Source of the DNA: an uncultured Pseudomonadota bacterium
Lineage (GTDB): Bacteria > Pseudomonadota > Alphaproteobacteria > RF32 > CAG-239
Direction of reading: 5' to 3'
DNA: 64,000 bases
NCBI GenBank assembly: GCA_902799835.1
Contig: CADCCF010000004.1
Location: 150,032 to 214,031, forward strand
Shown in pieces: positions 44,763 to 47,693 of this stretch. The position numbers and the translations under genes are program-made. Each line of letters starts with the position of its first letter. Within the stretch, counting starts at the first letter, position 1. A model generated the notes under the pieces. That model saw only the letters and a list, made by a program, of their open reading frames with translations, ran no database searches and was not told the origin of the DNA.

Positions 44763-47693
44763 ATGCTGATTGCTAATTTTGATGAGTTTAACCAATATTT
44801 AGATAGCCTATTTGCTCAAAATTCTGTTAAAGATTTTGCAAGCTATAGGCAGTCATTATTTGCATCTAAAGATCAGCGCAAAGCCAAAATTAATGATATA
44901 TCTCAAAAAATCAATCAATTAATAAAACAAATTGCCCAAGCCAGAACTAAAATAAAACAAACTTCTCCTCAAGACAAAAAAGCCCAAGGTGAAGCACTTA
45001 ACTCATATATTTCTGCCAAGCAAGAATTGGTAAAGCAATACAATACCATCAAAAATGCCACGCTTTTCAGCGAATTGACCACCGAAGCCAAAATTTACGC
45101 TTGTGCTAAAAATCTGTTGCTCAAATATCTGCCATCAGAACTAAACTCTCGCCCTTATTTGGCTATGCCTAAAGACAATGAGGGCAGTTTAGTTTTTACT
45201 CCTGATAAAATCCAAGATACCCCGCTGGATCGCGATATTCACCATATTATCGACTATGTTACCTCATATATTGAAAACTATCCTGAAAAAGTGCGTGGTG
45301 CCAAACACTTCACCGGTCAGCATAAACAATGCAGCGATATGTCTGAATTAATCGAAGAGATTGATGCCTATTTCACCAAACTCAATTCTCCAAAAGAAAA
45401 AGAAGCCAATCGCATCAAAAAAAGCCATTCCGGTTTTGAGGTTGTAATGACTATGCCGCAATATGGTTTGCAAGCCGTACGTTTATTAAACAAACCGGCT
45501 CTGCAATATGAAGGCTCAGCCATGCATCATTGTGTCGGATCTTATGCCGCAAGAGTTGAAAAAGGTGAAACCGCTATTTATTCTATGCGTTTAACAGCCG
45601 ACGAAACTCATGAAATGATACCCGTTGCCACCATCGAATATAAAGACGGAAAAATCAGCCAAATCAAAGGTCCGCATGATAAAGAAATTTCTTTTGCTTA
45701 CCTGCAGGGGACAAGAGATTTTATCCTTCATCTGACCGGCAAAAAAGATATATCTGAAATTGCATCAGACGACACTATTGGTGACAAACAAAATATCGGC
45801 CTTATCAAAGACAATTCTGGAGTTTATCGTGATATTTATACTCTGATAGAAGATGAAAATTATGTTTTTGATAATATTCATATCGAAGCATCATCTTTGT
45901 CTCATATTACGACTAATCATCTGAGCGTAAAAACTTTAACCATCCACGGTAAATTAAAAAATGATGACTTAAAATATTTATCCGCCATCAATGTGCAATC
46001 GACCCTTGCTTTTAATGAATTGGATTTTGAGGGCAAACATCTCGATTTATCAGGTTTTAGCAATACCGACATAAGGTTAGATTTTAGCCATACACCTAAC
46101 TTGGAAACTGTGACTTTATCTGATAATGCCAAATCACTGAGCTTATCCGGTGAGGCACTGGAGTTAAAAGATATTATTGCTCCTAATTTACATAAATTAA
46201 ATCCGCAACTCATTGCCCCTCAACTAGATTTTGCCAAATTAGGATTATCCGAGCTCGAATCTATGGGCATTTTTGTTAGTAATTTAACCAGTCATCAAAT
46301 TGATTTATCCAACTACACCACTTTAAAAGAATTGGTATTTAACAGTAAAACCGGTGAAGAATTACATAATTTGATTATCCCTCAGGGCTTGAAAATATTG
46401 GCCTTAACCGGACAATTTCCTAATTTATCAATCTCCGGTGCTGATAATTTGCAAACTTTGCATGTATCCGGTGGATTGGGCAATGATAAATTAGATTTAT
46501 CATCTTTTTCCGAATTAGAATCATTTAAGATTACGGCAGGCCAAGCAACCAATTGGCAACAAATCATTTTGCCGGAAAAATTAGCATCTTTTACTACACT
46601 GGGTGAATTTCCCAAAGTTGAAAGTATTATCGGTGCCCCTCACTTGCGTCATCTGGATTTGGAAGGAAAATATCTTTTACTCAAATTATCAATTAACAAT
46701 TGGCCGGAATTAACTGAGTTAAAAACAACTTGTGCTGATTTTGCCTCGCCTGATGTAAATTTGCAAAACTGCTCTAACTTAAGCTACTTATCACTTTATT
46801 CTTCTAAAAAAGGAAGTAATTGTCAATCGCTGATATTACCTGATAGTGTTGAAAATTTGCGATTAAACGGTGCTTTTCCTCACTTAAGTAAAATTCGTTT
46901 ACCTTCCAATCTGGAAAAATTAGATATGAGCGGTTCATTCGGATTAAAGGGATTAACTTTGCCGGATAAAGTAAAATCTTTTTCCTACGAAGACGAAGCT
47001 GATAAATATATACCGATAAAACTAAATTCCTCCTTACAAGAACTCGATCTTAATGGCAAAATTGAGCTTAATGATATGCTTACTTCTCTACCAAACTTAA
47101 TAAAATTGAATTTAGACGGAGCCGATATATCAGATATAACCTCTCTCAATTTACCGCATATTTGCCCAAAGTTGCAAGAACTTAATATGATGGACTGCCA
47201 AATGGCTAACTTGCGTGAACTGATAGCCTCTCCTGATATAGTTTTTCTTAATATGAATCAAAGCGAATTTCCTTCATTGGAAAGAATAGATTTTTCAGCC
47301 ATGCAACTCAAAACTTTTGGCAGAATCGACAGTAATCTTCTGGGCTCAATAACCATTTCCACTCTTCCTCAGAGTATGCGTGAAAATATCAAAGTTGATA
47401 ACAACAACCGAGTTCTCAACCCGCTGAATTTGCGTGGTGTAATTCTCCAAGAAGCCAAATTACCCAATTTGAAGGAAATTAAATATCCGCAAGATGTTGA
47501 AGCAATATACTTCGCCCTTAATAAGTTTGATCCCTATAAGGTTATTGACTTCAAAGCCTATCCCAATTTACGCACTATTGAAACACCGGATCTAAAGACT
47601 ATAGACGTGGCTAACCAAAGAGTTGTTGATAAGCCCCAATCAAATATGCAAGGTGTTATGATTTACCAAAACCGCCTGATAACGCGTTCTTGA
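44763..47693 (+). CDS. Large leucine-rich-repeat protein with a Cys/His-motif N-terminal domain of unknown function (976 aa); candidate host-interaction effector
   Basis: N-terminal coiled-coil. Conserved block SAMHHCVGSYAARVEKGETAIYSMR. At least 20 irregular LRR-like repeats (LxxLxLxxN/G, KLDLSG, LTLPDKV) across about 600 aa. Confidence 0.6.
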   Translation: MLIANFDEFNQYLDSLFAQNSVKDFASYRQSLFASKDQRKAKINDISQKINQLIKQIAQARTKIKQTSPQDKKAQGEALNSYISAKQELVKQYNTIKNATLFSELTTEAKIYACAKNLLLKYLPSELNSRPYLAMPKDNEGSLVFTPDKIQDTPLDRDIHHIIDYVTSYIENYPEKVRGAKHFTGQHKQCSDMSELIEEIDAYFTKLNSPKEKEANRIKKSHSGFEVVMTMPQYGLQAVRLLNKPALQYEGSAMHHCVGSYAARVEKGETAIYSMRLTADETHEMIPVATIEYKDGKISQIKGPHDKEISFAYLQGTRDFILHLTGKKDISEIASDDTIGDKQNIGLIKDNSGVYRDIYTLIEDENYVFDNIHIEASSLSHITTNHLSVKTLTIHGKLKNDDLKYLSAINVQSTLAFNELDFEGKHLDLSGFSNTDIRLDFSHTPNLETVTLSDNAKSLSLSGEALELKDIIAPNLHKLNPQLIAPQLDFAKLGLSELESMGIFVSNLTSHQIDLSNYTTLKELVFNSKTGEELHNLIIPQGLKILALTGQFPNLSISGADNLQTLHVSGGLGNDKLDLSSFSELESFKITAGQATNWQQIILPEKLASFTTLGEFPKVESIIGAPHLRHLDLEGKYLLLKLSINNWPELTELKTTCADFASPDVNLQNCSNLSYLSLYSSKKGSNCQSLILPDSVENLRLNGAFPHLSKIRLPSNLEKLDMSGSFGLKGLTLPDKVKSFSYEDEADKYIPIKLNSSLQELDLNGKIELNDMLTSLPNLIKLNLDGADISDITSLNLPHICPKLQELNMMDCQMANLRELIASPDIVFLNMNQSEFPSLERIDFSAMQLKTFGRIDSNLLGSITISTLPQSMRENIKVDNNNRVLNPLNLRGVILQEAKLPNLKEIKYPQDVEAIYFALNKFDPYKVIDFKAYPNLRTIETPDLKTIDVANQRVVDKPQSNMQGVMIYQNRLITRS

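Follow-up and report, generated by a model that had tools for sequence, protein, structure and literature searches.

Why would an uncultured alphaproteobacterium keep, among its housekeeping genes, a gene for a long leucine-rich-repeat (LRR) protein? The question is raised by a 976 amino acid (aa) protein encoded in a 64,000-nucleotide stretch of DNA (contig CADCCF010000004.1, positions 150,032 to 214,031; hereafter the window), which an earlier reading made from the sequence alone (the sequence-only reading) had presented as a candidate eukaryote-like effector. Our analysis favours a different answer, to which we give a probability of roughly 40%, namely that the gene and the smaller one directly downstream of it form a domesticated, conflict-type, two-gene cassette of the chromosome, which would be of mobile-element ancestry and would act inside bacteria. 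This view is based on the mobile-element type of the protein's head domain, the swappable nature of its repeat tail, a dedicated partner, a chromosomal position that varies between lineages and the absence of an export signal. The PcfJ family to which the head belongs, the LRR fold and the 'PcfJ domain-containing' labels of the databases are known already; the three-part architecture, the exchange of LRR for WD40 tails and the conserved partner are not described in the literature searched.

A PcfJ head joined to a leucine-rich-repeat solenoid

Database protein P0001 is 100% identical to the 976-aa protein, and an 86%-identical orthologue occupies the same chromosomal position in the rumen metagenome-assembled genome (MAG) RUG10873 (locus L001). 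Between these two the ratio of non-synonymous to synonymous substitution rates (dN/dS) is 0.20, compared with lower values of 0.04-0.11 in the neighbouring housekeeping genes, and on this ground the open reading frame (ORF) picked out by the sequence-only reading is a real and functional gene under purifying selection. AlphaFold models were made of the full length with 22 homologues (mean predicted local distance difference test score, pLDDT, 83.9) and of aa 1-395 (mean pLDDT 87.7). From the N- to the C-terminus the protein incorporates; 1) a family-specific region of long helices that matched no Pfam family and is the part that diverges most between close orthologues (73.5% aa identity to L001); 2) a PcfJ core with the predicted fold order strand-strand-helix-helix-strand-strand-strand-helix; 3) a solenoid of LRRs; and, 4) a short tail of low model confidence, the end of which (...IYQNRLITRS) is retained by most close homologues (Table 1).

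The core matches the Pfam PcfJ family (PF14284) over aa 211-308, scoring 49 bits where the gathering cut-off is 25 (E 7.4e-13), and the same Pfam family is matched by 22 of 22 close homologues. Inside it lies the conserved Cys/His block, made up of columns that are invariant in the family alignments, which the sequence-only reading had tentatively likened to PcfJ-like domains; the likeness is confirmed, and since the block is PF14284 the accompanying claim of a novel N-terminal domain falls. The residue pattern of PcfJ is present in full (E250, H256, C257, Y261, S274, R276, P287, T290, E292, Q300, K302 and G303). Across 183 PcfJ domains the conservation of this pattern spans 0.69-0.99, with E250, C257, Y261 and R276 at 0.97-0.99, S274, P287 and T290 at 0.92-0.95, and H256, E292, Q300 and G303 at 0.80-0.87, and in a diverse alignment of 24 PcfJ sequences the E, C, Y, R, P, T and G are invariant. 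In the AlphaFold model C257 is found at the start of a helix. Moreover, a Foldseek search against BFVD gave 29 matches with E<1e-3 (best 4.5e-10), mostly to proteins named as PcfJ-like phage proteins, while PHROGs families over the core were of unknown function only.

One possibility is that the conserved E...HC...Y...SxR...T.E...QxKG residues form an active site, and this bears on a proposal of quite another kind, in which the protein is a non-enzymatic scaffold or cell-structure protein, linked for example to the flagellum, with the PcfJ core and the LRRs both acting as interaction surfaces. Such a role would be consistent with the position of the gene next to flgE both here and in RUG10873, with a sub-threshold match of the N-terminal helices to FlgK_D1 (E 0.0012; 18.9 bits, cut-off 28.6) and with the failure of Foldseek and of profile searches of the PDB to demonstrate a catalytic fold. 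However, the flagellar adjacency is lineage-specific, the FlgK match occurs in one of 22 members and within coiled-coil sequence, and the invariant polar residues (E, HC, Y, S-x-R, T, E, Q) have the look of a catalytic or ligand-binding site rather than of a scaffold, a role that we regard as very improbable.

As a further possibility, the core may be a very divergent GNAT-like acyltransferase that would modify whatever the repeats capture. This suggestion comes from three features; the secondary-structure order of the core resembles that of GNAT, a Q-x-x-G motif ends the third strand of the core's three-strand run ahead of the next helix, and the sole matches of the N-terminal module in the PDB that are not coiled-coil are the MYST and HAT1 acetyltransferases, which are non-significant (E 0.19-0.5, probability 0.3-0.84). 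Two other assignments were considered and rejected. In a loop like that of protein tyrosine phosphatases, HC(X)5R, the arginine would have to be matched by a basic residue that here lies 7 positions past the Cys and, judged from alignments, is unconserved outside the subfamily; and a papain-like Cys-His dyad would draw its candidate His from a strand (consensus PHAT), where the 976-aa protein has Val288.

The sequence-only reading had counted at least 20 irregular LRRs over the C-terminal 600 aa or so, and this part of it is upheld. The solenoid shows the features of the LRR superfamily, with about 26 tandem units, an in-register L-x-x-L-x-L pattern, confident modelling by AlphaFold and a match to LRR_EndoS (PF23952) of 30.7 bits against a cut-off of 27.9, and its top Foldseek matches in the PDB are LRR proteins only, led by CroV588 (E 7e-9) and followed by BRI1, TLR9 and SHOC2, with SspH2, SlrP and InlB further down the list. 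LRR_4 (19.7 bits against a cut-off of 27) and LRR_6 are sub-threshold, and LRR models match 8 of the 22 close homologues and, in the wider family, 12 of 45 members. The in-register consensus, approximately xLxxLxLxGxFPxLxxIxLPx, resembles FNIP/IP22 repeats, a resemblance that rests only on period, consensus and the structural match to CroV588, as Pfam FNIP (PF05725) itself is sub-threshold (15.8 bits against 21, E 0.016) and reaches E<0.01 in one of 22 members. At the DNA level the gene contains no repeats, with no tandem arrays and only short repeats of chance length at window 43000-50000, from which it follows that the LRR array is old. The 64-kb window encodes no second LRR protein. Diversification by a retroelement was considered and rejected, there being no pair of template and variable repeats within window 43000-50000; no reverse transcriptase appeared among the annotated ORFs, which are not all those of the window.

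These repeats give the reading of the protein as a secreted effector its starting point. In that reading it would leave the cell by type IV secretion or by way of the flagellar type III apparatus, the LRRs would bind a host or protist protein, the PcfJ core would modify that protein and the downstream partner would be a chaperone. A long solenoid with its best match in a giant virus, then in plant and animal receptor LRRs and lower down in bacterial effectors and an internalin, may be consistent with this, as may the FNIP-like consensus, the conserved tail with its predicted disorder, the small partner beside the large gene (the usual arrangement for an effector and its chaperone), the adjoining flgE with fliK, a second hook-like gene and flhB in the window, and the rumen and human-faecal samples from which the family sequences with a stated origin come, the named members being Alphaproteobacteria MAGs. 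However, the protein has no signal peptide and no hydrophobic segment (maximum Kyte-Doolittle 19-residue mean 0.95), and among the annotated ORFs of the 64-kb window there is no non-flagellar secretion gene and equally no integrase, transposase or defence gene. The adjacency to flgE is not kept in other lineages, the head is a domain of phages and plasmids and is not among the known host-directed enzymes, a NEL ligase is absent, and the organism looks like a flagellated anaerobic fermenter, with a pyruvate:ferredoxin oxidoreductase (PFOR), a phosphoglucomutase and SecA, and not like an obligate intracellular symbiont.

A conserved partner in the same operon

The large gene is separated by 65 bases from a gene for a 192-aa protein, with which it forms an operon. 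The sequence-only reading had placed a terminator directly after the large gene. There is none in the gap, which folds with -4.4 kcal/mol (z -0.15 against shuffles), and the terminator instead follows the 192-aa ORF, where a strong hairpin folds with -21.5 kcal/mol (z -4.81, with 0 of 200 shuffles folding as well). From a gap without a terminator and a strong terminator after the partner it follows that the two genes are co-transcribed. The promoter-like site upstream (Table 1) is a candidate only, because shuffled sequence contains sites of this kind at least as often as the region does. The partner protein looks soluble, as it has no signal peptide or hydrophobic segment, and it has no Pfam family; a match to Lcl_C/DUF1566 (PF07603) is sub-threshold (17.4 bits against 34.9, E 0.0055) and occurs in one of 6 homologues.

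The partner is found directly downstream of the large gene in 10 loci (the window, L001, L002, L003, L006, L007, L009, L011, L012 and L013), which represent at least 6 otherwise unrelated neighbourhoods. Its match in L002 has 37% identity (E 3e-32) and that in L003 an E of 1e-10, and the partners in L009, L007, L012 and L006 were identified by profile search. Look-ups begun from the other side, from partner homologues (L011, L012 and L013), led in three of three cases to an adjoining PcfJ-family gene, with the identity of the large gene in L013 taken from our profile search and not from precomputed Pfam marks. The setting on the chromosome differs from lineage to lineage. In the window the flanks are a metallo-beta-lactamase (MBL) hydrolase and flgE; they are ftsY and a Na-H exchanger in L003, gap-pgk and a chromate transporter in L004, lptFG and gmk in L013, Bro-N in L011, and a histidine phosphatase with a different MBL gene in L007 and L012, which are two distinct settings. 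In L007 two PcfJ-family paralogues lie in tandem (5001-7652 and 8377-10872) with the histidine-phosphatase gene between them, and the partner follows the second only. A conserved link with MBL genes was considered and rejected, as those here and in L007 and L012 share the HxHxDH region only and belong to different subfamilies. It was also considered whether the partner or the N-terminal helices might be a fused or diverged PcfK/AcrIIA9, and this too was rejected, with no PcfK match and an hhalign probability of 0.1%.

Purifying selection extends over the parts of the cassette, with dN/dS against L001 of 0.095 for the PcfJ core, 0.21 for the LRR region and 0.24 for the partner. Synonymous divergence (dS) from L001 is uneven, being 0.16 for the core and 0.15 for the partner, 0.33 for the whole LRR region (0.39, 0.19 and 0.44 in its thirds), 0.5-0.87 for the flanking genes and 1.2 for the N-terminal helices. 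Nucleotide identity to L001 likewise ranges within the gene from 70% at 44901-45200, in the helices, to 98% at 45501-45800, in the core, while that of the flanks is 82-90%. This mosaic suggests that parts of the cassette have been exchanged between strains by recombination.

A low dS of core and partner relative to the flanks is also what would be expected of a selfish toxin-immunity or addiction-like pair passed between strains, in which the PcfJ head would be toxic, the partner would neutralise it, loss of the pair would be harmful and no sensing would be involved. The tight two-gene operon with its conserved small partner, the different chromosomal positions of the cassette across lineages and the occurrence of plasmid PcfJ genes among toxin-antitoxin modules could all be read in this way. 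Nevertheless, a 600-aa repeat domain kept under purifying selection is more than simple addiction would require, several loci with a seemingly intact large gene have no partner, there is no match to a toxin or antitoxin family, and no transposase or integrase adjoins the cassette here. We therefore consider a selfish pair to be improbable.

PcfJ on mobile elements and the proposed arena

Among 1.84 billion cluster representatives (clusters at 50% identity), a profile built from aa 1-395 found 53 at E<=1e-30, most of the full-length ones having 700-1050 aa and matching the entire 1-397 module, and 4,736 at E<=1e-3, which match the PcfJ core only. With about 53 clusters among so many representatives, the close family is not that of a conserved housekeeping component. 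Its named members appear in databases as 'PcfJ domain-containing protein [Alphaproteobacteria bacterium]' and come from MAGs. In the subfamily alignment aa 1-395 aligns throughout and the repeat region varies by large insertions and deletions, and in the distant members P0086, P0089 and P0131 the N-terminal module is kept while a propeller of eIF2A/WD40 type stands in place of the LRRs. Among the relatives that match in the core only are giants in which PcfJ occurs two to four times; P0068, of 3332 aa, combines three PcfJ copies with a topoisomerase I catalytic core, and P0080 is a PcfJ-core giant with LRV/HEAT repeats.

PcfJ is otherwise a domain of mobile elements. A tblastn search with the core returned 141 phage records, the phages being those of Listeria, Bacillus, Enterococcus and Streptococcus, and 9 plasmids. 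At 6 of 7 inspected phage and plasmid loci a gene of the AcrIIA9/PcfK family lies upstream and has its stop codon overlapped by the PcfJ gene, to which it is translationally coupled (L014:3418-5249, L015:3362-6249, L016:1148-3225, L018:1304-3258, L019:1403-3255 and L020:1505-3342), the exception being a Sphingomonas replicon without a PcfK-type upstream gene. Three of the upstream genes, those of phage SM1 and of plasmids from Streptococcus equinus and Enterococcus hirae, are annotated as 'Cas9 inhibitor AcrIIA9 family', and the other three have no annotation beyond 'hypothetical'; of these, the upstream ORFs of phages Clyde and CJLB-5 match SM1 gp22 at E 5e-59 and 6.5e-81, and that of Alicyclobacillus pAACI01 matches the upstream ORF of phage Clyde (E 1.6e-8). 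As AcrIIA9 carries the Pfam PcfK domain (PMC6739104), this pair is the pcfK-pcfJ pair of pCF10. On the evidence of these loci pcfK and pcfJ seem to make up a conserved unit of two genes on mobile elements, a pairing that the literature searched does not describe. ArdC-like, LPD1, SNF2 and toxin-antitoxin genes are found near the PcfJ genes of mobile elements.

Two observations on individual phage records may be added. The AcrIIA9-like ORF of L019 (MW057932.1, 'Campylobacter phage CJLB-5') is 76% identical in protein to SM1 gp22, an unexpectedly close identity, for which reason the host assignment or the assembly of CJLB-5 may be wrong. A PcfJ-LRR member with its partner is present in L006 (MT837328.1, 'UNVERIFIED Bacteriophage sp.', from human faeces, G+C 0.51), to which L011:2463-5594, with its Bro-N gene upstream, is a homologous locus; judging from these two loci, the lineage may be phage-borne.

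The WD40-propeller variants and the mobile-element relatives point to bacterial targets, and together with a head of phage and plasmid type and a co-transcribed partner they count further against the effector proposed by the sequence-only reading, which we consider unlikely. It keeps some weight because the carriers are host-associated, the repeats are like those of FNIP and giant-virus proteins and only 64 kb of the genome was inspected.

We return, then, to the preferred reading of a domesticated cassette acting inside bacteria. As PcfJ heads are otherwise found on phages, on plasmids and in giant mobile-element proteins, conflict with phages and plasmids is its likeliest arena. We propose that the LRR horseshoe, or the WD40-type propeller in distant relatives, would bind a specific macromolecule, most likely a protein; that the PcfJ core would then perform its conserved step, either on that target itself or in reaction to it; and that the 192-aa partner would modulate the large protein as an adaptor, an inhibitor or an immunity factor. 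The contest would be that of the bacterium with its phages and plasmids, and the cassette could serve in it as defence or as domesticated counter-defence. A more specific version of this proposal is that the N-terminal helices with the PcfJ head, the swappable LRR/WD40 sensor tail and the partner make up an undescribed chromosomal conflict system of gut Alphaproteobacteria, domesticated from PcfJ genes adjacent to AcrIIA9/PcfK, and this we put forward as a doubtful, speculative extension.

Several points weigh against a conflict cassette. The PcfJ core has no significant solved relative, the best Foldseek match in the PDB having E 0.03 (STAT and coiled-coil proteins), and when PDB sequences were searched with profiles, of the whole module or of the 24-sequence core alignment, only coiled-coil and antibody noise came up. 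Literature searches on PcfJ found annotation mentions only and no biochemical function for any PcfJ protein. The neighbours are housekeeping and flagellar genes, with no defence island or prophage, and neither protein of the cassette matches a defence model of PADLOC-DB 2.0 at E<=0.01. The cytoplasmic location is read solely from the absence of export signals. At L004/L005, L008 and L010 the large gene has no partner downstream of it, and nor has the first of the L007 paralogues. The origin of the family in host-associated metagenomes would equally fit a host-directed protein, and a search of IMG/VR viral contigs with two subfamily-specific peptide patterns did not find the subfamily.

PcfJ is widespread yet has no assigned function, though in mobile elements it lies beside the widely distributed anti-CRISPR family AcrIIA9/PcfK. 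A chromosomal head with an exchangeable solenoid and a dedicated partner would offer a way in to studying it, as the LRR tail should capture a ligand and the near-invariant Glu and His-Cys are targets for mutation. For genome scans the lesson is that a long LRR protein in a host-associated bacterium does not amount to a eukaryote-mimicking effector without evidence of secretion.

The features discussed are collected in Table 1, including the MBL hydrolase and the conserved 192-aa ORF, both correctly named as the flanks of the gene by the sequence-only reading. The near neighbours of the cassette comprise pheST, rplT, rpmI, an MprF-like flippase, the MBL hydrolase, flgE, an M23 peptidase, a dacA-like and a parA-like gene and pgm, and other annotated genes of the window are secA, PFOR, an M17 aminopeptidase, nhaA, a HAD hydrolase, a lipoprotein and a hybrid histidine kinase. 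The flagellar genes are scattered, with fliK, a 753-aa hook-like gene, the 404-aa flgE-like gene beside the cassette and flhB (6715-11601, 48439-49653 and 59636-60709); the second flgE-like ORF probably starts at the ATG at 48439, because the listed TTG start at 48325 overlaps the terminator. The PFOR (1186 aa, window 15448-19008) points to an anaerobic fermentative lifestyle. A peak in G+C of 0.55 (against about 0.39) at window 13001-14000 falls within a SPFH/Band-7 protein (12516..14078, minus strand), and as it lies in the Ala/Glu/Gln/Gly-rich coiled-coil C-terminal half it is an effect of composition and not foreign DNA. The RUG10873 region (L001:3069-5477, compared with window 42238-42487) has two apparent extra ORFs, of 195 aa and 561 aa, between the MprF-like and HAD-hydrolase genes, which are absent from the window.

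Table 1. Positions of the cassette, its parts and its signals in the window
Feature	Position	Strand	Basis and remarks
MBL-fold hydrolase	44054..44680		upstream neighbour; Lactamase_B, 83 bits
Promoter-like site (candidate), TTGATT, 17-base spacer, TATAGT	44708..44736	+	consensus scan, 9/12 matches
Shine-Dalgarno AAGGAG	44752..44757	+	direct reading of sequence; 5 bases 5' of ATG
976-aa PcfJ-LRR protein, coding sequence	44763..47693	+	ORF list; ATG start; 109.6 kDa, isoelectric point (pI) 5.75
Family-specific helical region, aa 1-200	44763..45362	+	AlphaFold helices aa 19-66, 69-98, 107-126
PcfJ core, aa ~205-345	45375..45797	+	Pfam PF14284; Foldseek; 97% aa identity to L001
Conserved Cys/His block SAMHHCVGSYAARVEKGETAIYSMR, aa 252-276	45516..45590	+	translation; invariant columns in family alignments; inside PcfJ core
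LRR solenoid, aa ~365-950	45855..47612	+	AlphaFold; ~26 turns, median period 22 aa
C-terminal tail, aa 951-976	47613..47690	+	pLDDT below 50 for aa 952-976
Partner gene, 192 aa	47759..48337	+	directly downstream; pI 6.75; C-terminal motif W-x-[IV]-P ... N ... GG ... R
Intrinsic terminator	48348..48386	+	terminator scan and RNA fold; 13-bp stem, 6-base loop, U-run

Comparison with known systems

The phage and plasmid PcfJ proteins, for example SM1 gp23 and those of the E. hirae and S. equinus plasmids, have the core residues and the predicted fold in common with the protein studied here. They are mostly of 330-560 aa, are without LRRs and are encoded in early or leading regions, whereas our protein adds a helical N-terminal extension of 200 aa and an LRR tail of 600 aa, and its gene is chromosomal, among housekeeping genes, at a site that is likewise occupied in RUG10873. 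It also differs from the PcfK-PcfJ pair of mobile elements in having no PcfK gene, with the MBL hydrolase upstream and a different partner downstream. A likeness to the polyvalent proteins of Iyer et al. 2017 (PMC5512222), the main text of which does not name PcfJ, is seen in distant PcfJ-core proteins such as P0068, and on the S. equinus plasmid the PcfJ gene has LPD1 and an SNF2 gene of 5.3 kb for neighbours; in contrast, our protein has one recognisable head with a repeat tail and lies off mobile elements.

With the IpaH, SspH and SlrP effectors and the internalins the protein shares an LRR solenoid of the kind used for target binding. Unlike IpaH, SspH and SlrP it has no NEL E3 ubiquitin-ligase domain, as no NEL family was matched in Pfam; its match to NCBIfam SlrP, at 18.5 bits where the cut-off is 1113, covers LRR residues only, and the order of its domains is reversed, with the head before the LRRs; unlike the LRR effectors and internalins it lacks a signal peptide, an LPXTG motif and a type III setting, and its repeats are FNIP-like in period and consensus, as against the 20-aa LPX type of LRR effectors. 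The best solved match, CroV588 of Cafeteria roenbergensis virus (PDB 6nyr), has in common with it the 22-residue period and the pattern L-x-x-L-x-L-x-G-x-F-x-x-L ... L-P. Its curvature differs, as the low TM-scores (0.23-0.30) indicate, and it is without a PcfJ head.

The same design is found in the targets of diversity-generating retroelements, where in the Candidate Phyla Radiation a PcfJ-like motif lies upstream of the hypervariable region (Wu et al. 2018, PMC5758913). In the family studied here variability arises through the gain, loss and divergence of repeats and not through a retroelement. Taken with the LRR, WD40 and LRV/HEAT relatives described above, these targets show that a PcfJ head combined with a variable binding module is a recurring design.

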